NCBI GenBank assembly: GCA_963699165.1
Contig: OY969413.1
Coordinates: 724,562-788,561 of the forward strand
Length of the DNA stretch: 64,000 bases
Direction of reading: 5' to 3'
Source of the DNA: Candidatus Kaiserbacteria bacterium
Lineage (GTDB): Bacteria; Patescibacteriota; Minisyncoccia; Phycocordibacterales; Phycocordibacteraceae
In this document: positions 146 to 58,519 of the stretch, in pieces
Layout: each line of letters starts with the position of its first letter
Position numbering within the stretch: position 1 is the first letter of the stretch
Translations under genes and position numbers: made by a program
The notes under the pieces: generated by a model
What the model was told of the DNA's origin: nothing
Seen by the model: the letters and a program-made list of their open reading frames with translations, nothing else
The model's database searches: none

Positions 146-1627
146 CTAACAAACATGATGTTTCTTCATTATGTTTCTGACCTCCTCGTCTTCTGCCTCC
201 TCTCGCCGCTGCTTACCGGTTTCGCCTAACTCTCGAAGGTTATCGTCAGTCATTTTTAAGAGCATTTCTGCCCGCTTATCTAGGTATTCCCTAGTGTTTC
301 TGGTTGAATCGTCCAGCACCTCTTCAAGGAGAGCATTGAGAACATACCCTATTCTGGGACCCGGTTTCTCGTAAAACTTCTCCATAATCCTATTTCCATC
401 GACCTTCAACATTTTCACCGATATTGGGTCGCGAAGGGCCTGCTCAACCATCGCCTTATATTTTCGAAAGCGAAAAGGTTGCTCTTTTGGACGGCCCGTG
501 CCGATGCGGTCGCAAATGCGCAAATTTAGCAAATCCCATATATTCGCTTCACCAACATTATTTATCATTCTTCGAACCGCAGATAAGGTGATTTGGTCGG
601 GATCAGAGAAAAACATGTGCCATCGGACCAACTTCGTAACCTTTTCTATGATTTCACGTGAAAAGCGCAAGTCCTCGAGTGCCTTTTTTGTTACACGTGA
701 ACCAACCACCTCGTGGCCATGGAAAGTCCACTCATGTTTTTCGTCTGACCAGCGGCGGGTCTCCGGCTTTGCAACGTCATGAAAGAGACCAGCCAGACGG
801 ACATCGAAGCTATAATCCTTATCCGCAGCGTGCTGCATTGTGCGCATGAGATGCTCAAAAACATCGTAGCTATGAGCTTGGTTTTGCTCAATTCCTATGC
901 CCCGCACTAAGTCCGGTGAAATAAACGTTAGAATATCGAGCTGCCTTGCGAGGAGCAGCGCATTCATCGGCTGGCTCGAATTAAGTATTCTAATGAGCTC
1001 ATCCCTAACCCTTTCACGTGAAACGTGTCTCAAATGCTTGCTATTTTCCTTTATCGCCATCGCGGTGTCGCCTTCAATGCCAAATCCAAGTTCTGCGACA
1101 AGACGTACGGCGCGCAGCATGCGGAGGGCATCTTCGTTGAATCGTTCCGAGGGATCTCCTACTGCCCGCACTATTTTGTCCTTTATGTCCTTTTGACCGT
1201 CATACGGATCAGTTAGATGTCCTTTAGAATCATCGAGCGCAATTGCATTCATTGTGAAGTCGCGGCGAGCAAGATCTTCGAGCAGGGAAGTGCCAAACTC
1301 AACTTTGTCCGGCCGCCGCTTGTCCGAATACTCGGACTCGGTCCGGAACGGCGTAACCTCAACGATTGCGAGTTTTTCATTTTCGGAACCTGTCTTTACT
1401 CCGACGGTTCCATAATCGTTTTCATAAAAAGAGTCAGGAAATACGGCCTGAATCTGTTCAGGGTTTGCATTGGTCGTGATATCCCAATCCTTAGGTTCAC
1501 GGCCTAAAATAAGGTCGCGAACGCATCCGCCGACCAAATACGCCTCGTAACCTGCGTTCCGCAGGCCGTCTGAAACTGCCGATATTTCCTTCGGTATCCT
1601 CTGCAGCATACGGGAATCGTAGCACAA
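146..1627 (-). CDS. cca: CCA-adding tRNA nucleotidyltransferase / poly(A) polymerase family with C-terminal HD domain
   Basis: N-terminal GGCVRDLILGREPKDWDITT nucleotidyltransferase motif; HD-domain-like region (HDVAKPE); 493-aa ORF. Confidence 0.85.
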   Translation of the reverse strand: MCYDSRMLQRIPKEISAVSDGLRNAGYEAYLVGGCVRDLILGREPKDWDITTNANPEQIQAVFPDSFYENDYGTVGVKTGSENEKLAIVEVTPFRTESEYSDKRRPDKVEFGTSLLEDLARRDFTMNAIALDDSKGHLTDPYDGQKDIKDKIVRAVGDPSERFNEDALRMLRAVRLVAELGFGIEGDTAMAIKENSKHLRHVSRERVRDELIRILNSSQPMNALLLARQLDILTFISPDLVRGIGIEQNQAHSYDVFEHLMRTMQHAADKDYSFDVRLAGLFHDVAKPETRRWSDEKHEWTFHGHEVVGSRVTKKALEDLRFSREIIEKVTKLVRWHMFFSDPDQITLSAVRRMINNVGEANIWDLLNLRICDRIGTGRPKEQPFRFRKYKAMVEQALRDPISVKMLKVDGNRIMEKFYEKPGPRIGYVLNALLEEVLDDSTRNTREYLDKRAEMLLKMTDDNLRELGETGKQRREEAEDEEVRNIMKKHHVC

Positions 1628-1669
1628 CGCGTCTGGTTTTTTCGGGTTTGTGCCGTAGTATGCAGGTAA

Positions 1670-1741
1670 GCCCTCGTGGTGAAATGGATATCACATCTGA
1701 CTTCGGATCAGACATTCCGGGTTCGAATCCTGGCGGGGGCA
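1670..1741 (+). tRNA. tRNA-Arg (anticodon TCG)
   Basis: Manual cloverleaf: acceptor GCCCTCG/CGGGGGC (one G-U), D-stem GTGA/TCAC, anticodon stem TCTGA/TCAGA with loop CTTCGGA, T-arm CCGGG-TTCGAAT-CCTGG, discriminator A; no encoded CCA. Confidence 0.75.
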
Positions 1742-1926
1742 CAAAACGAACGCAGTTAGATTTGTGCCCCGAAGCACGCCTCGGGGAGGCGTGCGTCCAG
1801 GATTCGAAGACCATGAGAGCATTTTATCGAGCATTCATATGCGAAGAGAAAATCCTCGTTCTCCAAGAGTCATTCTGCTGAATGAGGTGTACTGAAACTG
1901 TAAGTTTCGAATCCTGGTCGGGGCAC
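1742..1926 (+). repeat. tRNA-linked structured repeat unit R1 (Arg version): antisense copy of tRNA-Arg 3' end split by GC hairpin, AT-rich stem-loops, then direct copy of tRNA 3' end
   Basis: TTTGTGCCCC-[GCACGCCTCGGGGAGGCGTGC hairpin]-TCCAGGATTCGAA is the reverse complement of the tRNA-Arg T-arm/acceptor; GTTTCGAATCCTGGTCGGGGCAC at 1904-1926 is a direct near-copy of the tRNA 3' end. Confidence 0.6.
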
Positions 1927-1966
1927 TAGAAATTGAACGGGGGAACGTGCTATCATGGCGCACAGC

Positions 1967-2037
1967 GCGGGTATGGTTCAATGGTAGAACATCTGGTTGC
2001 CAATCAGATGATGGGAGTTCGATTCTCCCTACCCGCA
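1967..2037 (+). tRNA. tRNA-Gly (anticodon GCC)
   Basis: Acceptor GCGGGTA/TACCCGC perfect, D-arm GTTC-AATGGTA-GAAC, anticodon stem TCTGG/TCAGA loop TTGCCAA, T-arm GGGAG-TTCGATT-CTCCC, discriminator A. Confidence 0.85.
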
Positions 2038-2207
2038 CATACGAACAACGTGAGGATGTGCGGGTAAGCAGCCGCCTGCGCGGCTTGCGAGGGAGAATCG
2101 AAGGCCGCAGCGATATTCGGCTAGCAAGCCGAACCGCGAGGAGGGGCCGAGAAAATTCGTGAGCGGCGGCGAACGAATTATTCGTGGCCGATTCTCCCTA
2201 CCCGCAC
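2038..2207 (+). repeat. tRNA-linked structured repeat unit R2 (Gly-GCC version)
   Basis: TGTGCGGGTAAG-[CAGCCGCCTGCGCGGCTTG hairpin]-CGAGGGAGAATCGAAGGCC is antisense of the tRNA-Gly 3' end; two further hairpins (GCCGCAGCG..., GAGAAAATTCGT...ACGAATTATTC); ends with direct copy GATTCTCCCTACCCGCA. Confidence 0.6.
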
Positions 2208-2255
2208 CGAAGGAGGCCATAAGAAAATCGAGTAATCTCGTTTTTTCTTATGCGC

Positions 2256-2293
2256 CGAACGAGGTGACGGGTATGGACATTTCCATACACGCA
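2256..2293 (+). pseudogene. degenerate tRNA-Gly remnant (5' acceptor GGGTATGG ... CCATACACGCA)
   Basis: GGGTATGGACATTTCCATACACGCA mimics the start and end of the upstream tRNA-Gly(GCC) with the middle deleted; preceded by AAGAAAA...TTTTTTCTT hairpin. Confidence 0.35.
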
Positions 2294-2398
2294 CATACGA
2301 ACAACGTGAGGATGTGCGGGTAAGCAAGCCGCCGGTGCGGCTTGCGAGGGAGAATTGAAGGCTCGAATGCGTACTCGCCGGTTCTCCCCATGCCCGCA
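2294..2398 (+). repeat. tRNA-linked structured repeat unit R3 (shortened Gly-GCC version)
   Basis: CATACGAACAACGTGAGGATGTGCGGGTAAGCAAGCCGCCGGTGCGGCTTGCGAGGGAGAATTGAAGG ... GGTTCTCCCCATGCCCGCA; same architecture as R2 with one hairpin missing. Confidence 0.5.
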
Positions 2399-2509
2399 AT
2401 TCACCTTTCCACCCCATCTTCATCTTAAGTTCCGAATATGCTTTATATAAGCCGTTTTTGCTTGTCTTTTGGTTATGTGGTAGAAGTGGATAAAGGTGTT
2501 AACACTGGG

Positions 2510-2533
2510 GATAAGAGACATTTGTCTCTTATC
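2510..2533. promoter_or_regulatory. perfect 11-bp inverted repeat GATAAGAGACA-tt-TGTCTCTTATC (operator-like) upstream of yraN
   Basis: Seen directly in sequence about 60 nt upstream of the GTG start of the YraN-family gene. Confidence 0.3.
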
Positions 2534-2590
2534 TTTGGGTGCAGAAATGTCTGCTGTATACTTAGTAAATGAGCCGTTTTTCTAAAAGCC

Positions 2591-2986
2591 GTGGACGTTT
2601 CATCTAAGAGCCGCAAGGAAGTCGGGGCACTTGGGGAGAATGTCGCCTCCGAGTATCTGAGGCGGCGTGGTTTCTCGATTAGAGACCGCAACGTCGCGCG
2701 GAAAACCGGGGAGTTGGATATTGTTGCCAGAAAAGGCGACACGCTCCACTTTGTGGAGGTGAAGACGATGCTTGCTGATGCCTTCCCAAATGACACGGCG
2801 AAGTCCGATGAATATGATCCCTCCCTCAATTTGCACGAGGCAAAAATCAGGAAGGTCGCACGGACCGGCGAATGGTATGTCCTTGAGAACGATTGGGAAG
2901 GGGATTGGCAGGTTGATGGCTGCCTCGTTTGGATACGCCGACATGACGGCATGGCGTTTGTACGCTACCTGCCGCAAATTGTTTGA
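2591..2986 (+). CDS. yraN: YraN/UPF0102-family endonuclease-like protein
   Basis: GELDIVARKGDTLHFVEVKT motif matches the UPF0102 GE-x-D-hhA...hhFVEVK signature; GTG start. Confidence 0.65.
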   Translation: MDVSSKSRKEVGALGENVASEYLRRRGFSIRDRNVARKTGELDIVARKGDTLHFVEVKTMLADAFPNDTAKSDEYDPSLNLHEAKIRKVARTGEWYVLENDWEGDWQVDGCLVWIRRHDGMAFVRYLPQIV

Positions 2987-3016
2987 TTTCCCCTCACTAC
3001 CCCATATATGGTAGTA

Positions 3017-3196
3017 TTTCGCTCCGCTACGTTCGGGCCGCCGAGATTGGTCACGAATCTCGCCTCGCCGTCGCTCGGACTCGTTCGCGACCCCGCCTCG
3101 TCGTTTCGCCTGCTGGCGAAACATGACTGCGGCATTCAATTCTCGACGCATTGCGCGCAGGCGCAATGCTACGCCCCTCACTCCGCTCCGCTACGT
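3017..3196 (-). repeat. tRNA-linked structured repeat unit R6 (Pro version, minus orientation)
   Basis: On minus strand after tRNA-Pro: antisense T-arm TCGAGAATTGAATGCC, hairpins TTGCGCCTGCGCGCAA and GTTTCGCCAGCAGGCGAAAC (the latter identical to a hairpin in R4), GAGATTCGTGACCAATCTC, then direct copy GGCGGCCCGAACGTAGCGGAGCG of the tRNA-Pro 3' end. Confidence 0.55.
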
Positions 3197-3267
3197 TCGG
3201 GCCGCCGAGAATTGAACTCGGTCTGCCTGCTCCCAAAGCAGGTGTACTACCGGCATACTCCGGCCCG
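3197..3267 (-). tRNA. tRNA-Pro (anticodon TGG)
   Basis: Reverse complement gives acceptor CGGGCCG/CGGCCCG, anticodon stem CCTGC/GCAGG loop TTTGGGA, T-arm CCGAG-TTCAATT-CTCGG, discriminator A. Confidence 0.7.
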
Positions 3268-3428
3268 TCATACGAGATGGCATCATCCTGCGACGCCAGT
3301 ATGCAGTCCACAAACACTTTTCGTCCTTCAAGCACACCCTGCTTAGCGTTGCGAGCGCAGGACCAATCGCAATGCCATTTCGTGTGCACGGGCTCCGGCC
3401 CGTTATCTGCATCCTAACAGCTTTATTC

Positions 3429-4670
3429 TTATTGTGGCAATTGCGCGGCGATGACCGCTTCGAGCGAAGGCAACTGCGCCGCGAAGTTTGAAAGAGCAGT
3501 TGCTGTCGGTTCGGATATGAGTTGGTCAATCGGCTGTCCCGTTTCACTTGCGTATTCAGCCCGAACATAGGACGCGCTGATTGCATTTAGAGAACGCGAA
3601 TCCGTCGCGCCCTGCACCGTACTCGTGGTAATCGTACCAACGAGTTCGCCGGAAGCATCAGACACGCCGCCGCCTGAAGAACCTTCCTGCGCGGCCGCCG
3701 AACCGCCGAGCGCAAGCACGTCAACCGAACGCACGGCAAATGTGAGCACTTGCTTTATCGAACCGAACACGATGGTGGGGAAGAGATCGGACTGGATTTG
3801 GCTCGTATCAAGAAACTGCGCGCCATACGAAGCAATGACTACGGGCGTATTTGCAGCCGGTGGCGATTCGGCCAGCGCTATTGACGGGAACGAAGCGGGA
3901 AGGGGATGGGTTGTTTCGCTTTTTGTAATGGCAAGAAGCGCGAAGTCATACTGGCCGGTTCCGCTCGGATTTGCCTGCGTCAGCACGCTTTTGTTCGTTT
4001 GCAGCCAAATGGTTGGAATGTAGATAAGCGCCGCACTGTAACTGTCCACGGCCGGACTGCCGGTGCGGATGCTGCAACTCACATTTTTATCGACCAGAAG
4101 AAAATATTGCGCGATGTGCGCATTGGTGAGAATGATGCCTTTCGGGTCGATGATGACGCCGCTGCCGGAAATGGAATGCAGGCCGCTGTTCGCCGGTACA
4201 TAACAAAGAATATTTACGAGCGCGCCGCGAAGCAGAGCGGCCGACGCATTAAGCTGCGCATCCGCGGATTCGGAAAGAACCGTTGCCTGCGCAGGCGTGG
4301 AAGAGGGAACCGGGGAAGTCGGAGTCGAAATCGTCATCGGCGATGCGGGCGAAGTTGCCGAAGTGGGGTTTGTCTTCTTTTGATCGGCAACCGGCGCGGA
4401 ACTTGCGGCCGACTTTGCCGTTTCGGTTTTCGGCGCAATCTCTCCGCTAGAGGTTGCATTCTCGGTATTCTGCCTTTGAGTCGTCGAGTATTGAGGGGCG
4501 GGGGTCTTCTCGTGCACAATATTTAGTCCTGGCAGCGTTGTGCTTGTAATGTGCCCGTTCGACGCGGGCGCTTGAAATACGGATGGGCCGCCGATAAAAA
4601 TTGCGGCAAAACCGCCGACGACGAGAGCGGCCGCGATGCCGAGATAGGGAGTAAATCTCTCCACTTCCAT
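3429..4670 (-). CDS. membrane-anchored trypsin-like (S1/HtrA-like) serine protease with Ser/Thr/Pro-rich linker
   Basis: N-terminal TM helix; GSGVIIDPKGIILTNAHI (His region) and GSSGGGV (catalytic Ser GxSGG) motifs. Confidence 0.6.
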   Translation of the reverse strand: MEVERFTPYLGIAAALVVGGFAAIFIGGPSVFQAPASNGHITSTTLPGLNIVHEKTPAPQYSTTQRQNTENATSSGEIAPKTETAKSAASSAPVADQKKTNPTSATSPASPMTISTPTSPVPSSTPAQATVLSESADAQLNASAALLRGALVNILCYVPANSGLHSISGSGVIIDPKGIILTNAHIAQYFLLVDKNVSCSIRTGSPAVDSYSAALIYIPTIWLQTNKSVLTQANPSGTGQYDFALLAITKSETTHPLPASFPSIALAESPPAANTPVVIASYGAQFLDTSQIQSDLFPTIVFGSIKQVLTFAVRSVDVLALGGSAAAQEGSSGGGVSDASGELVGTITTSTVQGATDSRSLNAISASYVRAEYASETGQPIDQLISEPTATALSNFAAQLPSLEAVIAAQLPQ

Positions 4671-4702
4671 AAGGTAACCTAAAAATGGTATCCTCGCATT
4701 AC

Positions 4703-4773
4703 GCGGGATTAGTTTAATGGTAGAACGTCAGTTTTCCAAACTGAGAGCAGGAGTTCGATTCTCCTATCCCGCA
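4703..4773 (+). tRNA. tRNA-Gly (anticodon TCC)
   Basis: Acceptor GCGGGAT/ATCCCGC, anticodon stem TCAGT/ACTGA loop TTTCCAA, T-arm AGGAG-TTCGATT-CTCCT, discriminator A. Confidence 0.85.
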
Positions 4774-4944
4774 CATACGAACGAAGTGAGAATATGCGGG
4801 ATAAACAAGCCGCCTGCGCGGCTTGTGTGGAGAATCGAAGGCCGCAGCGATGTTTCGCCAGCAGGCGAAACCGCGAGGCGGGGCCGAGAAAATTCGTGAG
4901 TGACGACGAACGAATTATTCCTGGCCGGTTCTCCTATCCCGCAC
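4774..4944 (+). repeat. tRNA-linked structured repeat unit R4 (Gly-TCC version)
   Basis: CATACGAACGAAGTGAGAATATGCGGGATAAAC-[AAGCCGCCTGCGCGGCTT]-GTGTGGAGAATCGAAGGCC antisense to the tRNA 3' end; hairpins GTTTCGCCAGCAGGCGAAAC and GAGAAAATTCGT..ACGAATTATTC; ends GGTTCTCCTATCCCGCAC (direct copy). Confidence 0.6.
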
Positions 4945-5111
4945 AAAACGAGTCCACGAGATTTTGTGCGGGATTGAGCGGGACGCGGGGCGTCCCGCTC
5001 GGAGAATCGAAGGCCGGAGGCGCGACGGCGCCGAGGCGGGGTCGCGCAAATTTTCAGCAGAAAATTATGCGTGACCGAAAGGTGTAATCACCGGTTCTCC
5101 TATCCCGCACA
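4945..5111 (+). repeat. tRNA-linked structured repeat unit R5 (Gly-TCC version, variant)
   Basis: AAAACGAGTCCACGAGATTTTGTGCGGGAT-[GCGGGACGCGGGGCGTCCCGC hairpin]-TCGGAGAATCGAAGGCC ... GGTTCTCCTATCCCGCAC; layout parallels R1. Confidence 0.55.
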
Positions 5112-5159
5112 AATCACCATCAAGAAACCGGTTAAGCATTTCAGCAAAAGTGTTACTAT

Positions 5160-6476
5160 TTGCATAAATTGCCATTAGGAAAAGTTATGGGAAAAATGCA
5201 TCATGGAGAGAGAATTAATCCGCCTCACGAGAAACCTCCCGAGGAGGAAGCGAGAATTCCTGAACAACCCAGAGAAGGAACGCGGGGAAATATCGAGTTC
5301 GTGCCGGAGAATACGTTGGACGCAATAGACGTTGAAGATTTGACTCGTAAACTTTCCAAACTTGATTTTACCAATGACAGTGAGAATAACGTTGCACAGC
5401 TCCGGGATTTTATAAATTTTGACCTTAATCCGAGCGGGACACTTGGATTTCTGGATATTTTGCTTGCTTTGCGAACTGTCGCAAAGCAAGCGTTTGAACA
5501 GGATGGAATATCCGCACCACTCTATTGGACTATATTGGATTATTTTCAGACACGCGAGTCGCTTCCAAAACCATTTGGAACACCGGACGAATTAAACGAC
5601 GACGGTTACGTAGAAGACGGTTTCATCTATACAATCTTGAAAAAGAAGCTCTCCGAAGAACTTGTTACTTTCGCTCACAAACGCGAACGGGGTGCTGATG
5701 AAAGAGCTGTTTTTGTGCCGAGCGACAATACGAAGTTGGACGAAGAGGATGCCGCATTCCTGCATATCTTGAAAGAAAACCATATTACTGATGCCGTTGA
5801 ACATAAACTCGGGATAAAACTTGAAAATCTTGGCGAGCTCGCTCAAATCCGATTTCTTTCATACATTGCAGGACAATCGAACGAGGGCATGGATTGGACT
5901 GCGGAATTGTTCGAAAAGTACACCGAGGAAGAGCGCATACAAATATGCTACACGCTGCTTGCCTTTACGGAATATCCGGAATTAAGTTATACGCTTTTTT
6001 CTTTTTGCGAAGACCCGGAGTATGCGCGGCCGGTCATTAAAATCGTATCGGATATATTGCGGAATGTCGACAAAACGGAAGAATTTTTACGCGCCGAATT
6101 CAAATCGGAAGGGGATCATAAGGCAATTGATTTGCTCCGAAAGAAATTGATTGAGCGGGCAGATTCAGTGCTAAATACATACTTGCGTGCGTGGTATGGC
6201 TATCGTCATAAAGAATATGAAATATCGGAAGAAAATACCGATAGTAAAAAATTACCGGCCGGCGAAAAAGAACGCATTGCGGCAGAAATCGAGGAGTTAA
6301 AAAATGCATTGGCCGAGAAAGCGAAACGTGATCTTCAATACGCCAATGCCGACCAAGTGCTTTTCATGAACGCTTTTAAAACGTTAAAAGATCAAGGGAA
6401 GCTGCGCCTCGAAGATGTGCGAGGCGTTTCGCTTGTGACTGGAAGGTACCCCTTTCTTCGTACACTCATTCTATAA
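5160..6476 (+). CDS. hypothetical acidic protein (438 aa), no recognisable motif
   Basis: Long ORF with coding-like composition between the tRNA/repeat cluster and IS3 element. Confidence 0.45.
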   Translation: MHKLPLGKVMGKMHHGERINPPHEKPPEEEARIPEQPREGTRGNIEFVPENTLDAIDVEDLTRKLSKLDFTNDSENNVAQLRDFINFDLNPSGTLGFLDILLALRTVAKQAFEQDGISAPLYWTILDYFQTRESLPKPFGTPDELNDDGYVEDGFIYTILKKKLSEELVTFAHKRERGADERAVFVPSDNTKLDEEDAAFLHILKENHITDAVEHKLGIKLENLGELAQIRFLSYIAGQSNEGMDWTAELFEKYTEEERIQICYTLLAFTEYPELSYTLFSFCEDPEYARPVIKIVSDILRNVDKTEEFLRAEFKSEGDHKAIDLLRKKLIERADSVLNTYLRAWYGYRHKEYEISEENTDSKKLPAGEKERIAAEIEELKNALAEKAKRDLQYANADQVLFMNAFKTLKDQGKLRLEDVRGVSLVTGRYPFLRTLIL

Positions 6477-6486
6477 GTATAGGATA

Positions 6487-7269
6487 CTATGCTCTGCTCA
6501 GAGCAACAAACTCTCTTGGCGCCATACGCAGTGCTGAGTGAATGCGAGCGGTATTGTGATAGTGGATGGTGAGGTAGATCTCAGCCACTAATTCACCTAA
6601 CGTGTCGAATCGGTTCGGATCACCCAGGTCAATCTTGAACCCTTTGTAGAAGGACTCTTGGTAGCCATTCTCCCAGGGACATCCAGGACGAGACATAGAT
6701 TGCTGTATGCCGATCGTTGCCACGAGCATCGCATAATCCTTTGAGGCATACTCGCTGCCTTGATCCGAATGGATGACACGAGGTGGCGATTTGTGATGTA
6801 GCGCAGAGAGAAGTGCATTCATGATGAGTTGCGTGCTGTGGGTGGTGAGGACTGACACACCGACAATCTCTCGGGAATAGACGTCAAGGATGGTAGCGAC
6901 GTATACCCAGTACCCGTGGTACTTGAGGTAGGTGAAGTCACTCGCCCAGATGTCACCGTCCTGCTCGGGAGTTTGATGGAGCAAGAAGTTCGGGAATATA
7001 CTGTCTTTTGTCTTTAGCACAAATCGCTTCTTTGCGGTCCTCCGATATGGTTTGATACCGAACAATTTCATCACACGCAGAATGCGCTTTTTGTTGACTT
7101 TGAGGTAGAGTGCCAACCGTTTGTGCCCATAGGCGGGATGGCTATGCAGAGCTTCTTCGATGAGTTGCTTTGTGTGCCAATCCCTCCGAGCCTGCTTCGG
7201 CTCGTAGTACAGCGTACTGCGAGCAATACCGCTCTCGCGTGCAAGAGCACTCTTGTTTTCTCTCATCAA
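6487..7269 (-). CDS. IS3-family transposase OrfB (integrase catalytic core)
   Basis: DDE-region motifs WASDFTY, HSDQGSEYAS, C-terminal DLGDPNRFDTLGELVAEIY. Confidence 0.8.
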   Translation of the reverse strand: MMRENKSALARESGIARSTLYYEPKQARRDWHTKQLIEEALHSHPAYGHKRLALYLKVNKKRILRVMKLFGIKPYRRTAKKRFVLKTKDSIFPNFLLHQTPEQDGDIWASDFTYLKYHGYWVYVATILDVYSREIVGVSVLTTHSTQLIMNALLSALHHKSPPRVIHSDQGSEYASKDYAMLVATIGIQQSMSRPGCPWENGYQESFYKGFKIDLGDPNRFDTLGELVAEIYLTIHYHNTARIHSALRMAPREFVALSRA

Positions 7270-7526
7270 GAGCCCCTTTTTTCTCCGTTTGAGAGTTTAA
7301 ACGTCAATTCTCCGATGAGTGCTTTAAGGAGACCGTTCTCCTTCTTCACTCTGTTGTGCTCAATGATACTCACTCCTTTTGCAGAGGTGCCAAGCCAAGC
7401 ATAGATAGTGACGGTACTGACTCCGTGTTCTTTCGCTGCCTCAGCGACACTGATGCCATCGTTTTTGATACGGTTGATAATCTGCTCCTTAATCTCAGGA
7501 GCAATACGGTATGCTTTCTTTGCCAT
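7266..7526 (-). CDS. IS3-family transposase OrfA (HTH)
   Basis: Small HTH protein (ISVAEAAKEHGVSTVTIYAWL) immediately upstream of and overlapping orfB. Confidence 0.75.
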   Translation of the reverse strand: MAKKAYRIAPEIKEQIINRIKNDGISVAEAAKEHGVSTVTIYAWLGTSAKGVSIIEHNRVKKENGLLKALIGELTFKLSNGEKRGS

Positions 7527-7846
7527 AGGTACATTCTAAATTAGCTGCTGGTATTTAGAATGAGTGTCCGACGTTTGGGGTACCTTGCACAGCGGCTCGT
7601 GATTCCTCTTCGCCTGCATGATTTCACGCGCAACACGCACATATTATTTTGCGGCTGCCGGAACTCGTGCGGGTAAGAGGGATCGCATTTGCGATTCCTA
7701 AGCAAAGGCTTGTCTGTGTGCCCGAGAAACACAGAATGTGCGGACGAGACAATGTGCATAATCTTTTGCACATATCTTGCTCGAAGGAGCATCCTGCCGT
7801 GGTCGTCATTACCATGGGTCCGTCAGGAATCCCTAAGGAGGGAAAA

Positions 7847-8788
7847 ATGAACAACATAGCGAAAATTCGTAAGTCGGCCGCCGTCCGCATATGGCGGGTT
7901 TTGAGTCCTCAGGGACTCAACCACCCGATGGTGTGTGCACCATCGGAGTGGTTGCTCGAGCGGCTCGCGGAGTCCTTCGAGTCTGACGCCCAGATCTCTA
8001 AGGAGATCTGGAAAATTGCGTGCAGGGCGTTTGCTCTGCACTACCCGGGGCTCGAACGGCCCCTGGGGTCGTGCTACCACCCGGACGTGCACGACGTGCT
8101 CGACGTCGTGTATCACTACGGGGCGGCGGCGCAACGCGCGTTGCGCAAGACCGCTGCAGCGGCAGCAGTGGTCGTCACGTCCCAGCGCGAGCTGTGGACG
8201 AAGTCGGACGTGTTCCCGACGGAGGAGGGGACGTATTACGTCCCGCCGACCGGGAAGGGCTTCCGGCACGTCGAGTTGACGGCGGGGTATCTCGGCCGTC
8301 TCGCCGACGCGGTGCGCGAAGGTCGCGCACCGGAGGTGCGGGACATCCGTCCCGAATTCTTCGAAGTCGGCTGGGATGCGCGCATCGAAGCGATGCGTCG
8401 CATCGACGCCAAACTGCGCGAGCAGTATGGCGAACTGGCCGCGCTCGTCGCGCGCGACCACCGGGGCGCCATCGTCGAGTCGACTTCGGACCATCTCGAC
8501 TGGTCCGAACGGTGGTATGACAACGGGCACTGCCCGAACGGTCGTACTACCAACCGGATGGAGACCGACGGCCGAAAGGTCGTCATCTCCTCCGAGGAAA
8601 CCGAGGCGCCGCAGGGGTATTTCTGCGGTGGCGGCCGCAGGGAAATCCGGGTGGACAGCGCCACTTACGCCGTCGACGTTCAGTACGAGCCGAGGGTTGG
8701 GTACCGGCTCGGCCGCGTTTATTTGTGGCCGGGGTATAACCCGGCCACGGTCGCGGAGGCGCTCCACGACGCAATGAACCTCAAGTAG
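7847..8788 (+). CDS. hypothetical protein, high-GC island gene 1
   Basis: Strong RBS AAGGAGGG 8 nt upstream of ATG 7847; about 65% GC, unlike surrounding genome; no recognisable domain. Confidence 0.5.
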   Translation: MNNIAKIRKSAAVRIWRVLSPQGLNHPMVCAPSEWLLERLAESFESDAQISKEIWKIACRAFALHYPGLERPLGSCYHPDVHDVLDVVYHYGAAAQRALRKTAAAAAVVVTSQRELWTKSDVFPTEEGTYYVPPTGKGFRHVELTAGYLGRLADAVREGRAPEVRDIRPEFFEVGWDARIEAMRRIDAKLREQYGELAALVARDHRGAIVESTSDHLDWSERWYDNGHCPNGRTTNRMETDGRKVVISSEETEAPQGYFCGGGRREIRVDSATYAVDVQYEPRVGYRLGRVYLWPGYNPATVAEALHDAMNLK

Positions 8789-9014
8789 TTCGCCCCATGT
8801 GCCGTGCCGCATGGACAGTAGTTCTTTCCCGCAAGCGTAGCACGGAGCGCTGGCAACGAGTTTCGGAAAACTCGTAAATATTTCCGAGGTTGGCAGCGAG
8901 CCGGGCGTTAGTCCATTCGCTTGCAGGCAGGTCTGTGGAGTAGGCGACGGCGGTCCGTTGTCTACTCCACTCTATTCAGCCCGCGAATTGTTCGTTGGCT
9001 GATTGAGAATATGA

Positions 9015-9100
9015 AATCGAATTGCCGTTCCTCTTTTCCGATGGTACGCACTTGTGCGTAGTTTCAGGAAAGAGGAACGGCAATCAACGCGATTGTTGTT
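9015..9100 (+). repeat. island repeat B copy 1: long palindrome ATTGCCGTTCCTCTTTTCC..GGAAAGAGGAACGGCAAT with inner GTACGCAC/GTGCGTA hairpin, upstream of island gene 2
   Basis: Near-identical copy at 9826-9905 upstream of island gene 3. Confidence 0.6.
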
Positions 9101-9159
9101 CCGAAAAATACTCGGGCGCGTGAGCGCCAACCGGCACCGAAAGGTGCGAGGAGAGAGTC

Positions 9160-9690
9160 GTGAAATTTTTGCTCCCTAAGTTCGCCTATCACCACTGGTT
9201 GGGCAACCAGGGCCTCACGAGTTATCGTTGGGGGCAGCTCGAGGACCCCGACGTGGAGGTAATCGTTTTCCCGGATGGCCGGGTGTACCTGCCTGCGGGC
9301 GACTTCAAGCAGGCCTATGACCTGCAACAGGTCGGACCCGGAGTGTACCGGCTCCCCGCACCGGTGCCATACCACTGGGCCGGGGAGGAAGCAGACCTTG
9401 TCTGCTTTGGTTGGGGTGATGGGGACCCCGACCAAGAGCTCGTGGTCTGCCCGGATGGCCGTGGGGTCTATATGGCCGCCGGGGACTCCGGCCAGGCCTA
9501 TGCCCTTCGGCGTGGCCAGATGGGCCGGGAGGATTTCCCGATCGGCACCCGGGTCCGGTACCCGGATTTCGGCGAAGGGACCGTCGTCAGCCACGGGCCA
9601 AGTTGGTCCGTCTCCGTTCAATTCGATACGGATCATCCTGCGTCCCTGAGGGCTTTCCAGCCCAGGCGGCTGGAAAAAATCGTTCCGTAG
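9160..9690 (+). CDS. hypothetical protein with internal tandem duplication, island gene 2
   Basis: GTG start after GAGGAGAGAG RBS; internal repeat VFPDGRVYLPAGDFKQAYDL / VCPDGRGVYMAAGDSGQAYAL; high GC. Confidence 0.5.
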   Translation: MKFLLPKFAYHHWLGNQGLTSYRWGQLEDPDVEVIVFPDGRVYLPAGDFKQAYDLQQVGPGVYRLPAPVPYHWAGEEADLVCFGWGDGDPDQELVVCPDGRGVYMAAGDSGQAYALRRGQMGREDFPIGTRVRYPDFGEGTVVSHGPSWSVSVQFDTDHPASLRAFQPRRLEKIVP

Positions 9691-9825
9691 CGGGATGGTT
9701 CCCGCAAAATGGTTCGGGCGGCGCGCGAAAGCGCGCCGCCCACGAGGGACGAGTATGGAATACTCGTTCTTTCTGTATCGGGATGTGTGTCCCGACTGAT
9801 GAGCTCGAAAGGGCGAAACAGAAAT
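9690..9825 (+). repeat. island repeat A copy 1 (about 135 bp) containing hammerhead ribozyme
   Basis: Near-identical to 10456-10592; contains hairpins GGGCGGCGCGCG-AAA-GCGCGCCGCCC and ACGAGTAT-GGA-ATACTCGT, then the hammerhead motif. Confidence 0.7.
9766..9824 (+). ncRNA. type III hammerhead ribozyme (HHR-1)
   Basis: Helix III 5' strand UUCUUUCUG, cleavage triplet GUA (9775-9777), helix I hairpin UCGGGA-UGUGUG-UCCCGA, CUGAUGAG (9796-9803), helix II CUC-GAAA-GGG, CGAAAC (9814-9819), helix III 3' strand AGAAA; 7 Watson-Crick pairs in helix III including A15.1-U16.1. Confidence 0.8.
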
Positions 9826-9905
9826 TGCCGTTCCTCTTTTCCGACGGTACGCGTGGAGCGTAGTTTCAGGAAAGAGGAACGGCAATCAACGCGATTGTTG
9901 TTCCG
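9826..9905 (+). repeat. island repeat B copy 2
   Basis: AATTGCCGTTCCTCTTTTCCGACGGTACGCGTGGAGCGTAGTTTCAGGAAAGAGGAACGGCAATCAACGCGATTGTTGTTCCGA; directly follows HHR-1. Confidence 0.6.
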
Positions 9906-9968
9906 ATGAATTCACTCGGCGCATGTGCGCCGATTCTGCCGCACCGAAAGTGCGACGAGGAGGACACC

Positions 9969-10409
9969 ATGAGTTACTACGGACAAACGACGATTCAATG
10001 CCCGATATGCCAAGTTCAGGCAGGGGAACCATGCCGCGACGGGGGTCCTTTCGGCCACTCCGCGCGAGACACACTCGCGCGGGCGATGCGGTTGTCCGAG
10101 CCCAGAAGGGCTGCTGCGGCCGCTCGGCTGCCTGTCATCCGCCGCGTATGGGCGGATGACCGGGCCTGGATTGTTGATCCAGACCTAGCGGTGCTCCGCG
10201 CTTGGCTCAAGGCGCCGAGTCAAGAGACTTGGCTCGACGCCTACAAGACGGCTCTCAAAATTGAGAGCTGGCTGGCCGATTACGCCCAGCGTTGCAATCT
10301 CGCAATGGAGGCGAGACTAGACGCGGGCGGTCGCGCTATCCACGACCTCATAGACATCCTGCGGAACGAAACCGACGAAGCCGCCGCTGCCTCGCCCGTG
10401 CGCGAGTAG
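9969..10409 (+). CDS. hypothetical protein, island gene 3
   Basis: ATG after GAGGAGGA RBS; begins MSYYGQTTIQCPICQ; high GC. Confidence 0.5.
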   Translation: MSYYGQTTIQCPICQVQAGEPCRDGGPFGHSARDTLARAMRLSEPRRAAAAARLPVIRRVWADDRAWIVDPDLAVLRAWLKAPSQETWLDAYKTALKIESWLADYAQRCNLAMEARLDAGGRAIHDLIDILRNETDEAAAASPVRE

Positions 10410-10455
10410 TTCTTTCCAGTTAATCGCCAGCGCGGCACGGCGCGCTGGCACAAGC

Positions 10456-10592
10456 GCGGGATGGTTCCCGCAAAATGGTTCGGGCGGCGCGCGAAAGCGC
10501 GCCGCCCACGAGGGACGAGTATGGAATACTCGTTCTTTCTGTATCGGGATGTATGTCCCGACTGATGAGCTCGAAAGAGCGAAACAGAAAAG
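10456..10592 (+). repeat. island repeat A copy 2 containing hammerhead ribozyme
   Basis: About 97% identical to 9690-9825. Confidence 0.7.
10533..10591 (+). ncRNA. type III hammerhead ribozyme (HHR-2)
   Basis: GUA cleavage triplet 10541-10543, helix I UCGGGA-UGUAUG-UCCCGA, CUGAUGAG 10562-10569, helix II CUC-GAAA-GAG (perfect), CGAAAC 10580-10585, helix III AGAAA. Confidence 0.8.
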
Positions 10593-10721
10593 TCCACAAA
10601 GGGCTATAGGTCGTTCGAAGAACCGAAATGAAGTGCGGTGTGAGTTCTAAAATCTCTCTCCTCTAGCACTGCACTTTTATTCGAATCTCTCGGCCTGTAG
10701 CCCTTTTGGGATTTCGACAAA

Positions 10722-10749
10722 CCCCGCGCCGCAGGCGCGGGGCTTTTTG
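10722..10749 (+). terminator. rho-independent terminator CCCCGCGCC-GCAG-GCGCGGGG + TTTTT
   Basis: GC hairpin followed by T-run; identical hairpin recurs at 13707-13727. Confidence 0.6.
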
Positions 10750-10833
10750 TATGGTATGTCTTTGCTCAAAATAAACGAAGAATGTTTGGAATTCGAGCCG
10801 CATTTTTGAATGCAAACGTGGTATAATACACAT

Positions 10834-11082
10834 ATGACAGAATTACCGGCCAACATCAAGCGGCTATTCTGGGATATGGATTCGGATGCGCTCGACGCCG
10901 AAAAACACGCCGATGCGATAATCGAACGCGTATTGAATACGGGTTCACTTGCCGATTGGAAATGGCTCGTTCAAAATTATGGAACTGGCGCTATCCAGTC
11001 CCGTCTTTCCCGAAAAACAATGTTTGGCCGCGACAACTTCCGCCCGGAATCGCGCCGTCTTGCATCGCTCATCTTGCGATAA
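10834..11082 (+). CDS. small hypothetical protein upstream of AbiEii gene (possible cognate antitoxin partner)
   Basis: 83-aa ORF ending 1 nt before the AbiEii start codon; TATAAT-like -10 at about 10822. Confidence 0.4.
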   Translation: MTELPANIKRLFWDMDSDALDAEKHADAIIERVLNTGSLADWKWLVQNYGTGAIQSRLSRKTMFGRDNFRPESRRLASLILR

Positions 11083-11083
11083 C

Positions 11084-11710
11084 ATGATTCATTTTGAGGC
11101 ACTAACGTCGGAAGCGCGGGAATTGTTTCCACTCCTTTCGGCGTTCAAAAAAGATTTTTATCTGGCGGGCGGTACGGCGCTTGCACTTCAGCTCGGACAT
11201 CGCATATCCGTCGATTTCGATTTGTTTTCACCGGACCCGATAAAGAAAAATCTGCTCGGAAAAGTCGAGGCGCTGTATGCGCTCCGTACGATTGAAGTTT
11301 TTATAAATAATTCCCGCGAACTCACGCTCACTGTGAGTGGCGTGAAGCACACCTTTCTGCATTATCCGTTTCCGGTTCTTCTTCCTATATCCGAACATGA
11401 GCCGGTGGACACGCTTTCGCCGCAAGAGATTCTCGCCACCAAGGCGTACACGATAGGCAGGAGAGGTTCGCAGAAGGACTACGTCGATTTGTACACCGGA
11501 GTATCCGAGCACGTTTCAACACTCGCGGATGTGATTCAATCGGCACGGACGAAATACGGCGATGCATTTAACGACCGACTATTTCTAGAGCAGCTTCTCT
11601 ATCTAGACGACGTTCCGCAAGCAGCCATGCAGATGCTCAAAGGCGCCGCGCCCACGCGGGAAGAACTTGTAGATTTTTTTCAAAGACAAATTGCAGGACT
11701 CTTATTGTAG
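11084..11710 (+). CDS. nucleotidyltransferase AbiEii/AbiGii toxin-family protein
   Basis: FYLAGGTALALQLGHRISVDFDLFS N-terminal motif characteristic of AbiEii (Pfam PF08843-like) family. Confidence 0.6.
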   Translation: MIHFEALTSEARELFPLLSAFKKDFYLAGGTALALQLGHRISVDFDLFSPDPIKKNLLGKVEALYALRTIEVFINNSRELTLTVSGVKHTFLHYPFPVLLPISEHEPVDTLSPQEILATKAYTIGRRGSQKDYVDLYTGVSEHVSTLADVIQSARTKYGDAFNDRLFLEQLLYLDDVPQAAMQMLKGAAPTREELVDFFQRQIAGLLL

Positions 11711-11871
11711 AAAGAACGATTGAGAGGGAATACAAAAAACGGTCTAACAGTGAAAATTTCACCTTTCAATCGCACATATTGATGCATGGGATAAGAATTT
11801 TGAAAAACAAACTATGTAAGGTTCGTCAAAAATCGGACAACTTTATATAGTTTGCTATGACAAAAAAATTT

Positions 11872-17618: not shown

Positions 17619-18548
17619 CGTTTTCTAATCAATAGCTTGGACGCATTCTGTTAATATGGCGAGCGGCGTTTTGAGGTCGAGCCCGAAGTGGTGGCGGGTG
17701 GTGTTGTACCCGCTCAGATAGGTCGGCAGAATCGCATTGATTGCCCGTATCTCAATCGAAAGAGCATCAAGACACTCTTCACGCAGTGTGCGATTGAATC
17801 GCTCGACGTGCGCATTGTCGTTGCTCTGCCTGACTCTCGTGTGTCGATGGCGTATCGAGAGGCGTTCGGTGAAGTGCATGGAGAACTCGGGGCCATTGTC
17901 GGTCTGCACGCACTCGAACAGGAATGGTGCCGCAACCTGTGCCCGCTTCACGAAGAGGAGAGAGACGCGGCAGTTGATGCGCGGGGTCGCCCAGGCGTAC
18001 GCCCAACGGCTGTATACATCGATTAGTGTATACACGTACAGAACCGTTTTGCCGTGGAGTGCCAGATGGATGGTGTCCACCTCCACAAGAGCGCCCGGAT
18101 ATGCGGCTTCCGGACGTTCCGAGTGCGGGTGGTACCGTTTCCACGGGCTCCGCTTTTTGATGAGGCCGAAACGACCGAGCGTCCGCTTCACCGACGAGAG
18201 CGACACCGAGACACCCTCGTCTTCGAGCGCCCGGTGTACGACCTCGGCCGAGCGTTTGAGTACGAGACGCTTCTCGACAATCTTGTTCACAATCTTCGAC
18301 GGCAGCTCGTTTGGATGATTCCTCGGTTTTGATGAGAGCGTCGGAATCGGATGATACCCGTATATCTTCGCCTTCTTCACCCATTTGCATACCGTACTCG
18401 ACCCGACGCCGAACCGACGGCCAACCTCGGTGGGCGTATATCCTCTCCTCACCATGTCTGCAGCATCCCTTCTGACCTTGGGCATGTGCGGGTTTTGTGT
18501 GTATGCCATGACGCGATGATATCGCGTCCAAGCTATTGAACCATTACG
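17619..18548 (-). mobile_element. IS481-like (single-ORF rve/DDE) insertion sequence, copy A
   Basis: 100% identical over about 930 bp to inverted copy B at 29118-30046; terminal inverted repeats sharing TCAATAGCTTGGACGC. Confidence 0.8.
17625..18509 (-). CDS. IS481-family transposase
   Basis: N-terminal HTH (GYTPTEVGRRFGVGSSTVCKWV), DDE core TDNGPEF ... NAHVERFNRTLREE. Confidence 0.8.
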   Translation of the reverse strand: MAYTQNPHMPKVRRDAADMVRRGYTPTEVGRRFGVGSSTVCKWVKKAKIYGYHPIPTLSSKPRNHPNELPSKIVNKIVEKRLVLKRSAEVVHRALEDEGVSVSLSSVKRTLGRFGLIKKRSPWKRYHPHSERPEAAYPGALVEVDTIHLALHGKTVLYVYTLIDVYSRWAYAWATPRINCRVSLLFVKRAQVAAPFLFECVQTDNGPEFSMHFTERLSIRHRHTRVRQSNDNAHVERFNRTLREECLDALSIEIRAINAILPTYLSGYNTTRHHFGLDLKTPLAILTECVQAID

Positions 18549-18681
18549 CGGACATTGACAGTACAATTAAGTATTGCAGAACACGCTATGCGAGAATTTT
18601 GCGTCGTAAATACATGCTATATCTTAATATATAAATGTCGGAAATACTTTACAAATATGAGCATTTTGCTAGAATTGGCAT

Positions 18682-29003: not shown

Positions 29004-29117
29004 ATGACGTCATTCTAGCGGTTAATCCCGTCTAGAACATGGTCTGAAATTTGGGGGTCAGGTCAGACTGCCAAATGTATCTGAACTTATGCATCCGGCA
29101 CCGCGCCCAGGATTCCC

Positions 29118-30460: not shown

Positions 30461-30583
30461 TGCGACTCCTTTCTTCCAAATGCAGATGAGAACGGCTTGC
30501 TTCGAGCGTCAAACGCCGACGTTTTCACCGTTTTGAGAAAGTATTTCAACTACGCGACGCGCAACGCGTTATACTTCACATAT

Positions 30584-56959: not shown

Positions 56960-57055
56960 GCCGATGCGGAATTAGTTTATGCACATGATATTAACAGATT
57001 CTCCCCGAAAAACCAGTATGTTTTCTTTTTGCGGAGAAGGTATACTCCCATCAAT
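56960..57055. promoter_or_regulatory. rpmH-dnaA intergenic region with DnaA-box-like TTATGCACA (56977-56985)
   Basis: Divergent promoters region; single near-consensus box. Confidence 0.4.
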
Positions 57056-58408: not shown

Positions 58409-58519
58409 GCATTTCACGACACTTATCAACATTATACCGGTCGCGCTGTGCGATAGATTTCTTTTATTTTATAGCTCTTTTGGGTTTATCCCCTTATCCA
58501 CACCCATAATAAAGATTGT
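58409..58519. promoter_or_regulatory. probable oriC core: DnaA boxes TTATCCACA (58494-58502), TTATCAACA (58423-58431), TTTATCCCC, plus AT-rich DUE-like stretch
   Basis: Perfect consensus DnaA box and AT-rich CTTTTATTTTATAGCTCTTTT between dnaA and dnaN. Confidence 0.6.

Follow-up and report, generated by a model that had tools for sequence, protein, structure and literature searches.

The subject of this work is a cluster of four tRNA genes, and of the structured non-coding repeats attached to their 3' ends, in a 64,000-nucleotide (nt) stretch of contig OY969413.1 from a Candidatus Kaiserbacteria bacterium (assembly GCA_963699165.1, positions 724,562 to 788,561 of the forward strand), the whole of which is called the window in what follows. 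The four genes were found by both ARAGORN and Rfam and encode tRNA-Arg (TCG; 1670-1742, plus strand; 62.1 bits with the Rfam tRNA model), tRNA-Gly (GCC; 1967-2038, plus strand), tRNA-Pro (TGG; 3197-3267, minus strand) and tRNA-Gly (TCC; 4703-4774, plus strand). Behind them stand six non-coding units of 105-184 nt (R1 to R6), oriented like their tRNA, which belong to a large, apparently undescribed family of structured elements at tRNA 3' ends. A preliminary description of this DNA had reported that each of these tRNAs is directly followed by one or two units, built from the antisense and the sense of the 3' end of its own tRNA, and the arms and hairpins that it quoted after the four tRNAs are indeed present where it had placed them (in R2, for example).

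The units share one order of parts, namely an antisense copy of the tRNA 3' end, a structured interior and a sense copy of the same end, with the antisense copy usually split by a GC-rich hairpin (P2) at the junction of acceptor and T stem, into an anti-acceptor segment and an anti-T arm. R1 (1743-1926, plus strand), behind tRNA-Arg, is composed of a spacer (1743-1763), the anti-acceptor segment gtgccccg (1764-1771), P2 (1774-1794), the anti-T arm tccaggattcgaa (1796-1808), an interior with a core that we call A-type (1809-1904; …ggtgtactgaaactgtaag) and the sense copy tttcgaatcctggtcggggcac (1905-1926). R2 (2039-2207, plus strand), behind tRNA-Gly-GCC, contains the anti-acceptor segment gtgcgggta (2058-2066), P2 (2069-2087), the anti-T arm agggagaatcgaa (2090-2102), a variant of a second, G-type core (ggccgcag…gaggaggggccgag…gtggcc) and a sense copy (2190-2207). 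Located 3' of R2 are a terminator-like hairpin (aagaaaa-tcgag-taat-ctcg-ttttttctt; 2219-2252, plus strand), of a kind also found behind tRNA-Gly-GCC or its unit in relatives (loci L033, L050 and L011; comparison loci carry L numbers throughout), and a tRNA-Gly remnant (acceptor 5' strand and tgg … cca and 3' strand, tccatacacgcac; 2267-2294, plus strand). This remnant, which is conserved in L033 and L034 and falls partly within the 45-nt repeat 2282-2326 (equal to 2026-2070), acts as the "tRNA end" for R3 (2295-2399, plus strand), a core-less and partly decayed unit with an anti-acceptor segment (2316-2324), P2 (~2327-2346), an anti-T arm (2348-2359), the small hairpin cgaatgcgtactcgcc and the sense copy ggttctccccatgcccgca (2380-2398). 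Behind tRNA-Pro, R6 (3020-3196, minus strand; G-type core) reads in the tRNA sense as spacer (3196-3170), P2 (3169-3148), anti-T arm tcgagaattgaa (3146-3135), a core extending up to gtgacc (3054-3049), sense copy aatctcggcggcccga (3048-3033) and a trailer repeat acgtagcggagcg (3032-3020). The last two units are stacked: R4 (4775-4944, plus strand), behind tRNA-Gly-TCC, is a G-type variant of the R2 subtype (anti-acceptor segment atgcgggat, 4794-4802; P2, 4805-4826; anti-T arm ggagaatcgaa, 4829-4839; core, 4840-4926; sense copy, 4927-4944), and R5 (4945-5110, plus strand), behind R4, has the canonical G-type core (anti-acceptor segment gtgcgggat, 4966-4974; P2, 4976-5000; anti-T arm, 5001-5011; core ggccggag…gaggcggggtcgcg…gtgacc, 5012-5076; small hairpin P6, 5077-5094; sense copy, 5095-5110).

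A repeat search recovered the sense copies and inverted arms as well, together with the similarity of R2 to R4 (83% identity over 133 nt) and of R4 to R6 (84% over 80 nt, on opposite strands and thus in like orientation relative to their own tRNAs), and no unit modules outside R1-R6 were found in the rest of the window. The picture given in the preliminary description needs three amendments here. There are six units as it had counted, but R3 is core-less and stands behind a tRNA-Gly remnant; most units have the full design, but R6, like other tRNA-Pro units, lacks a convincing anti-acceptor segment; and the arms generally derive from the unit's own tRNA, but those of R1 match tRNA-Arg of other species.

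All six units adopt a common multi-branch fold, in which a basal helix (P1, anti-acceptor segment with sense acceptor strand) is followed by P2, by a helix between the anti-T arm and the sense T arm (P3) and by distal hairpins beyond it. The fold analysis, one of the checks proposed in the preliminary description, gave folding energies below those of shuffled sequences for every unit (z from -3.4 to -8.7: -4.8 for R1 and R2, -3.5 for R3, -6.6 for R4, -8.7 for R5 and -3.4 for R6). Side-by-side reading of the units reveals at least two conserved interiors, a fixed feature that the preliminary description had overlooked. The G-type is, in short form, GCCGGAG-hairpin-GAGGCGGGGTCGCG-hairpin-GTGACC and, in full, cGAA-aGCCGGAg-(variable hairpin P4)-cGAGGCGGGGTCGCG-(variable hairpin P5)-yGTGACC, while the A-type is ...GGTGTACTG-hairpin(CTGTAAG) or, in full, GACCTTGCGAG...CGCAAGGTGTACTG-(hairpin with loop CTGTAAG). 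An optional hairpin, P6 (cgaWaagYGTAATCRCgg), lies ahead of the sense T-stem, inside the sense T-loop, and a spacer (aYacgaRc..agYgagga) is conserved 3' of the tRNA in Kaiserbacteria-like loci. The two cores are unrelated to each other, and units with either core or with none have the same arm design. One interior can follow different tRNAs (the A-type stands after tRNA-Arg in the window and after tRNA-Gly-TCC in L005 and L009), a tRNA-Pro unit in L013 is a mosaic of G-type and A-type, and R3 and its L212 orthologue possess the arms, P2 and a P6-like hairpin without a core. When present, P2 branches at the acceptor/T-stem boundary (65/66, ±1) in all Arg, Gly, Ala and His units inspected by eye; it is missing from some Gly-GCC units, and the Pro units are without the anti-acceptor segment.

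No family of Rfam 15 (4227 models) could be assigned to the units, the whole window being scanned at gathering thresholds and the region 1600-5250 with E values up to 10: none scored at gathering, and at E up to 10 the sole matches overlapping a unit were weak ones, far below gathering, of mir-233 and isrK to the minus strand within R4. With the tRNA model (RF00005) only the four genuine tRNAs scored, even at E up to 10, and the units are not cloverleaves by this measure. Additionally, BLAST of R4 and R5 found no match in 50,697 phage or 72,556 plasmid records, and a search of open-access papers and bioRxiv preprints, by topic and by core sequence, found no relevant description. The earlier statement that no repeat family of this design is described thus stands, and we know of no described counterpart of a conserved core inside arms re-made from a neighbouring tRNA; every one of the known systems compared here departs from the units in one or more of its defining traits. 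In size and habit they resemble REP, BIME and REPIN sequences, MITEs (miniature transposable elements with inverted repeats), Correia elements and RPE, which are likewise short, GC-rich, hairpin-forming, multi-copy, located after genes or terminators, patchy and often in tandem. Nevertheless, REP- and MITE-type families have fixed termini and spread through intergenic space, whereas the units have termini re-made from the neighbour and stand almost exclusively at tRNA 3' ends, in one orientation; neither constant terminal inverted repeats nor a target-site duplication of fixed length was found at the units (their arms vary, as does the length of the repeat), and no parent transposase or RAYT was identified in the window. 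TIGR-Tas systems, in which short dual-spacer units form long arrays, give rise to 36-nt RNAs by processing and stand beside a Nop-domain tas gene (PMC12045711, which also cites plant tRNA-snoRNA genes), were considered and rejected, the units being 105-184 nt long, present one or two per tRNA and with no Nop-domain gene nearby.

The pairing evidence comes from units recovered by regular expression and nhmmer and from manual structure counts. In an alignment of 31 G-type sequences (R5 among them), controlled by 500 column shuffles and by slid partners, 86% of the cells in the core are paired, compared with 73% in the shuffles, and 148 cells carry a double change, compared with 50 in the shuffles (none of the 500 reaches 148) and at most 28 with slid partners. 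At the base of P5 (GGTCGCG/CGTGACC) a G.U pair is kept in 31 of 31 sequences and the next pair alternates between G.U (17) and G-C (13), while compensatory changes are present in 18 of the 51 pairs of the A-type core. In 23 of 26 units the fold of the sense strand is more stable than that of the reverse complement (mean difference 7.3 kcal/mol; 94 G.U pairs vs 46), and the structure is conserved while the sequence of the hairpins varies. Moreover, between species in which the protease domain (the most conserved) has a nucleotide identity of 70-75%, the interiors reach 83-97%. The R5 interior, for instance, is 95% identical to the first unit behind tRNA-Gly-TCC in L005; the unit common to L005 and L009 is 98.7% identical, compared with 87-90% for the syntenic genes; R3 is 91% identical to its orthologue in L212, where that copy lies directly 3' of tRNA-Gly-GCC; and R6 is 88% identical to its L212 orthologue (coding DNA ~80%), with six of the ~18 differences forming three compensatory pairs in P2 and P4. 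The search for conserved base pairing in homologous loci, suggested at the outset, has thus a positive result, both in the covariation of the cores and in the orthologues of R6. Based on this covariation, the invariant G.U pair, the strand polarity and the conservation of the interiors, the structure of the units is under selection as a single-stranded form of sense polarity.

The units could be functionless by-products of replication template switching at the terminator and T-arm hairpins (of the tandem-inversion-duplication type) or decayed attL/attR scars of integrative elements formerly inserted at these tRNAs. In favour of this, integration at tRNA genes classically leaves the tRNA 3' end directly repeated, the forward-inverted-forward order with hairpin junctions is what snap-back switching produces, and an apparent 6.7-kb island with an IS3 element and AbiEii lies beyond R5. 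Repeats left by phages and islands that integrate into tRNA genes likewise start in the T-loop and leave an intact tRNA at the left; unlike them, the units have only 105-184 nt between the repeats, no integrase, an extra inverted copy, and an interior that is conserved, covaries and stands behind about 17 specificities among the matches listed. With no open reading frame (ORF) between the repeats and no further copy of a tRNA end in the 64-kb window (none at the far side of the island in particular), att scars were rejected, and with them the att-site remnants that the preliminary description had offered as one possible meaning. As for template switching at quasi-palindromes, which yields perfect inverted copies and tandem inversion duplications with just this order and these junctions, it matches the arms (16 of 17 complement positions); alone, however, it delivers no conserved foreign core and leaves unexplained why the same cores of 60-100 nt stand behind many tRNAs in different phyla, covary, keep the invariant G.U pair and are more conserved than the coding flanks. 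The conserved core largely refutes this explanation, which we regard as very improbable.

Judged by the protease gene that separates tRNA-Pro from tRNA-Gly-TCC, the window belongs to Minisyncoccia/Paceibacterota and, within them, to the Kaiserbacteria-like bacteria of the candidate phyla radiation (CPR), and the block tRNA-Gly-TCC, protease, tRNA-Pro, YraN, tRNA-Gly-GCC, tRNA-Arg and CCA-adding enzyme is syntenic in more than 80 species. An association of the units with YraN or the CCA-adding enzyme was considered and dropped, both genes having this position in genomes without any unit, L001 for example; the two are thus bystanders. YraN and the palindrome near it, both noted earlier, keep their place in relatives that have no units, and their association with the cluster is coincidental. 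This "operator-like palindrome" (2509-2532, perfect, GATAAGAGACA-TT-TGTCTCTTATC), which lies upstream of YraN at ~60 nt from its start, is unrelated to the units; L005 and L212 have it in partly conserved form.

Copies of tRNA ends were counted for the 305 tRNAs of the syntenic loci, as matches to the last 15 nt with at most two mismatches within 500 nt downstream or 400 nt upstream. Such a copy lies downstream of 33 of the 305 and upstream of none (by our own arithmetic, about 5e-4 per tRNA would be expected by chance), and an antisense T-arm lies downstream of 34, compared with six upstream. Unit profiles (nhmmer) gave 48 matches in 87 loci, nearly all abutting the 3' end of a same-strand tRNA, with contig edges or tRNA remnants at the exceptions; in the window they recovered R2, R3, R4, R5 and R6 and, with the A-type profile, R1 (E 8.5e-33). 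The units are therefore genuine, tied specifically to tRNA 3' ends, and present at only about one tenth of the orthologous tRNA sites. Scanning metagenomes for GAGGCGGGGTCGCG-N18-48-GTGACC yielded at least 120 stretches, about a dozen of which are chance matches in GC-rich coding DNA. At least 66 of the cores have a same-strand tRNA less than 200 nt away on their 5' side (at 43-177 nt), and these tRNAs are the ones for Arg, Ser, Leu, Val, Lys, Trp, Glu, Ile, Pro, Ala, His, Phe, Met, Tyr, Gln, Asn and Gly, so that the tracking of the adjacent tRNA by the arms, first noticed for four genes, holds for about 17 amino-acid specificities among the matches listed. Of the remaining places, many adjoin the end of a contig or follow either another unit or a tRNA-like end missed by ARAGORN. 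Gene-bearing versions (autonomous or cassette-like) were looked for where the core is far from any tRNA, but these cases proved to be tandem arrays, missed tRNA remnants or extra non-coding spacer, without a recurrent ORF.

One G-type unit (L159) stands behind tRNA-Gln on a contig whose lysyl-tRNA synthetase (LysRS) is 92-93% identical to Elusimicrobiaceae proteins, and on this basis the family spans at least Patescibacteria and Elusimicrobiota; in cultured Elusimicrobium and Parelusimicrobium, the DNA covered around LysRS has neither a tRNA nor a unit and is uninformative. As cores are found in hundreds of independent assemblies, an artefact of assembly or binning is very unlikely. Scans of viral contigs gave, for the G-type, one real locus (L087) and two chance matches in GC-rich phages and, for the A-type, nothing. 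L087 (2840-3319, an IMG/VR contig) and L188 carry tandem G-type units with arms from a tRNA with the T-loop ttcaaatccct. The neighbouring ORFs of L087 look like housekeeping genes by eye (an NAD-dependent epimerase, for example), which makes its viral label doubtful.

The anatomy of the arms was studied in a set of 89 units (R1 of the window is not among them). C56 is where the sense copy begins in 53 of 66 units, and the antisense copy, which spans T54 to the 3' terminus, ends opposite T54 in 63 of 83; since C56 is also the last C of GTGACC, the sense copy truly begins at either C56 or R57. Of 732 positions that can be compared, 690 are alike in the tRNA, the sense copy and the complement of the antisense copy, and where they disagree the odd one is the antisense copy 30 times, the sense copy 12 times and the tRNA never. 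The arms contain CCA where it is gene-encoded (L109), and the longer repeats take in trailer bases and sometimes the whole terminator hairpin (R6, L109), the length of the tRNA-end repeat ranging from ~15 to more than 45 nt. In R1, outside this set, the tRNA is the odd one: the two arms (gtgccccga / tcggggcac) agree with each other and with tRNA-Arg from other species, and differ at two positions from the 3' end of tRNA-Arg in the window (cgggggcac).

The positions that are not Watson-Crick paired in tRNA stems (G.U or mismatch) reveal the source of the antisense arm, which is the complement of the 3' strand at 16 of 17 such positions; at the G3.U70 pair of tRNA-Ala there is an A opposite U70 in two of three units. 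The antisense arm is thus a templated Watson-Crick copy of the 3' strand of the gene, and the word "templated", with which the preliminary description had described the structure, gains support. By the same 16 of 17 positions we ruled out that this arm is the tRNA 5' strand, a decayed duplicate of the tRNA (pseudogene) or a synthetase mimic that keeps tRNA identity. The antisense arm also pairs through the T-loop, the discriminator and CCA and, as it drops the G.U pairs of the tRNA as well, the closing helix is not a faithful top half of the tRNA.

Close relatives differ by whole units. At tRNA-Gly-TCC, L005 has one extra G-type unit of 163 nt between the tRNA and the unit that it has in common with L009; the tRNA-Pro site has a complete unit in L009 and only the spacer, P2 and the anti-T arm left in L005. 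Positions 2039-2294 of the window are absent from L212, and these extra 256 nt comprise R2, the hairpin and the tRNA remnant. At their borders stand the 45-nt repeats 2026-2070 and 2282-2326, between which recombination would remove exactly these three features. In the window R4 sits between the tRNA and R5, while the R5 orthologue of L005 is tRNA-proximal, and tandem stacks are found in L005, L093 and L108, besides R4-R5. At the Gly-GCC site of L050 there are an antisense arm and P2 of Gly-TCC type, which are best explained, from their sequence, by exchange between units. Copy number and position thus change quickly. The view that this is not a fixed-sequence mobile element was right about the arms, which vary with the tRNA, but the interior is a conserved core across tRNAs, genomes and phyla, and the patchy distribution together with the insertion and deletion of whole units between close relatives makes the family look mobile or copy-number-dynamic.

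Orientation adds a further constraint. As dnaA/dnaN lie at 57-59.6 kb and the cumulative GC skew has its minimum near 56 kb (the probable origin of replication), R1-R5 on the plus strand and R6 on the minus strand lie in one replichore, and the orientation of a unit therefore follows its tRNA and not the replication fork. Mechanisms acting on the lagging-strand template are thereby disfavoured, and the pattern fits either a transcription-linked function or insertion defined by the target.

Insertion defined by the target can be imagined as site-specific recombination of single-stranded DNA: the unit would be a folded site like the integron attC or the attP of CTX-phi, imitating a tRNA 3' end, and a recombinase or HUH nuclease acting in trans would insert it. 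In integron arrays (attI/attC), as in the folded attP of CTX-phi, a site is followed by a body, an inverse site, a folded region and a second site; both are stacked beside a fixed anchor, and both have strand polarity and a structure that is partly more conserved than the sequence. The units, with an order that can be written as X - spacer - X' - core - X and with tandem stacking, can be matched to core site, cassette, inverse core, attC and core site; their structure is conserved while hairpin sequences vary, their strand polarity is fixed, some of them lie beyond terminators, and the foreign arm pair of R1 is what would be expected if both arms travelled with the element. Nevertheless, this "site" is ~20 nt long and a copy of the adjacent tRNA, different for each, unlike the common 7-nt core site GTTRRRY of integrons, the bodies are without genes (none was seen in any spacer), and, unlike attC, the units have an invariant interior core of ~35 nt. 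At the unit boundaries, which are local copies of tRNA ends and differ between tRNAs, neither the attC core nor its inverse (GTTRRRY / RYYYAAC) was found. No integrase was found in the tRNA cluster or its flanks (1-14.9 kb), and the larger ORFs tested in the rest of the window (41-49 kb partly scanned) gave only rve-type transposases, ordinary ones whose insertion sequence (IS) ends (6440-6473 / 7556-7589, for example) are unrelated to the units. More generally, no linked integrase, HUH or other candidate is apparent, the Xer-like gene of the syntenic loci being present in unit-less genomes too. Orientation, which follows the tRNA on both strands of one replichore, counts against targeting of the lagging-strand template and not against site-specific recombination as such. 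Altogether we consider a recombination site of this kind improbable.

A transcription-linked function would instead make of the units a tRNA-trailer RNA serving the host, co-transcribed with the tRNA and either excised and stabilised as a mimic of acceptor and T arm (by RNase P, RNase Z or RNase III) or acting in cis on the tRNA. This second form includes the three-segment competition proposed in the preliminary description, in which 3' maturation or termination would be tuned by the choice of the antisense arm between two partners, the 3' half of the tRNA and the sense copy. On paper the arm could indeed pair with either, as a riboswitch or attenuator would require, but the element is downstream of the gene and often behind a terminator-like hairpin. 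RNAs released by tRNA enzymes are known elsewhere, such as mascRNA, those of plant tRNA-snoRNA genes and the 3'ETS-leuZ sponge of E. coli. Together with the tRNA-miRNA of herpesviruses, they resemble the units in being non-coding RNAs beside a tRNA or tRNA-like fold; they use tRNA transcription and processing, whereas expression of the units is putative, and none of them has an antisense and a sense copy of the tRNA 3' end, is multi-copy over many tRNAs or shows turnover by presence and absence as the units do. In favour of a trailer RNA, the orientation is always that of the tRNA, the cores covary and keep an invariant G.U pair, compensatory changes are seen in orthologues whose interiors are more conserved than the flanking genes, the GC-rich hairpin branches at the acceptor/T-stem junction, and in the window the terminator-like hairpin comes after R2, not before it. 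It is odd, however, for a regulator of essential tRNAs to be present at about one tenth of the orthologous genes and to differ by whole units between close relatives; a helix that loses the G.U pairs of the tRNA, including G3.U70 in two of three tRNA-Ala units, is unfaithful to the top half that it should mimic; and two unrelated cores, plus core-less units, within one arm design count against a host-serving trailer, as do the terminator-like hairpins often found ahead of the unit. On balance, a trailer RNA strikes us as rather unlikely, though the rival to be taken most seriously.

The reading that we favour, tentatively and at somewhat less than even confidence, is that the units are a copy-number-dynamic and probably mobile non-coding element, with a fold in the single-stranded sense form, most likely as RNA, and with arms templated on the adjacent tRNA. 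Under this proposal the fold would form in the sense strand, most probably in RNA from transcription running on past the tRNA gene, and selection would act on it there. The arms would not be a fixed part of the element, being made or reset by templated copying of the neighbour's 3' strand, possibly through polymerase template switching or palindrome correction seeded at the T-loop, which, as the sole sequence common to all tRNAs, would form the junction of core and arms. The direct repeats (tRNA end and sense copy) would allow copies to be gained, lost and stacked, and such repeat-driven gain and loss would give the patchy multi-copy distribution and the exchange of interiors between units. 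RNA as the functional form, the way in which new copies are seeded at a new tRNA, and the partner or role of the core are matters that we infer. A stronger version, to which we give distinctly less credence, is a self-propagating element without a protein, which would rewrite its closing helix from the target at each newly colonised tRNA gene; the T-loop would be its docking point, both arms would consist of copies templated on the 3' strand, and it could act as RNA or as single-stranded DNA. It would amount to a homing element programmed by its target, whose spread over several bacterial phyla had escaped notice.

Several observations weigh against the mobile, RNA-based element that we favour. 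Neither a gene for an enzyme nor a circular form came to light, nor did an empty/filled pair from one population, and mobility is for this reason deduced from the distribution only; additionally, the high conservation and the compensatory changes at orthologous sites would also fit an RNA that benefits its host. The arms show no case, in the 89-unit set, of a compensated change (sense and antisense alike, both unlike the tRNA), and their antisense substitutions are not enriched in wobbles (nine wobble vs 14 non-wobble transitions), so that they look like recent or continually reset copies and not like a helix maintained by selection. The RNA form is itself put in question by the hairpins of several units, which contain GCGAAGC or GCGGAGC, unusually stable minihairpins in DNA, and by the fact that G.T wobbles and sheared G.A pairs are tolerated in DNA hairpins too. 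In many examples outside Kaiserbacteria a terminator-like hairpin (A-tract/GC-hairpin/T-tract, by eye) stands between the tRNA and the unit; transcription into the unit would then need read-through, which argues against obligatory co-transcription. Finally, G-type cores are found directly behind rplL (L143, ~9660-9790) and at the end of a ribosomal-protein operon containing rpsI (L118, ~4900-5040), with arms that are short and, in the crude and noisy exact matching used as arm test outside tRNA contexts, not above chance or doubtful. Judging by these cores behind ribosomal-protein genes, the family is not strictly tRNA-bound.

A terminator-like hairpin also recurs 3' of tRNA-Gly-GCC in several species (L033 and L034 included) next to a minimal "acceptor-stem hairpin", that is, a tRNA-Gly with positions ~10-60 deleted, and this pair is present even where there is no unit.

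The apparent island beside tRNA-Gly-TCC, R4 and R5 (5160-11800) is absent from the syntenic loci L003 and L005. It contains a 438-residue ORF of no assigned function, an IS3-type element (6487-7526, with inverted repeats 6440-6473 and 7556-7589), a block of 61% GC at 8-10 kb and an AbiEii toxin gene (10949-11710). Within it, 9020-10600 is cassette-like: direct repeats of 135 nt (9690-9824 / 10456-10590, 99%), together with a palindromic hairpin of 64 nt present in copies at 9021-9084 and 9824-9886, flank two small GC-rich ORFs, one without a Pfam match (9160-9690) and the other with a phage zinc-finger domain (9906-10409). The window has five transposase genes of the rve family (IS3/IS481-like; 6487-7269, 17625-18566, 24299-25390, 27937-28749 and 29051-30040), which for 64 kb of a small CPR genome is unusually rich in IS. 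Further along are genes for a type IV pilus ATPase and platform protein (30449-33549), ComEC (43962-45461), a cluster of TraG and type IV secretion system (T4SS) pilin genes (49831-54557) and dnaA-dnaN (57029-59620), and the DNA-uptake machinery among them is relevant to any model in which the units spread horizontally.

If the units are RNAs, they would be a new class of abundant structured RNA in Patescibacteria and Elusimicrobiota, with a core as conserved as a tRNA. If they are mobile, their manner of selecting and copying the target, with arms re-made from the neighbour, would be one used by no described insertion sequence, MITE, integron cassette or intron. In either case they put direct and inverted repeats of 15-45 nt around essential genes, leading to local deletions and duplications such as the one that separates the window from L212, they inflate the "intergenic" space of very small genomes, and they can confuse the annotation of tRNAs and att sites in metagenome-assembled genomes. 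With its invariant junctions (T54 and C56) and its simple core motif, the family lends itself readily to a census and to testing.

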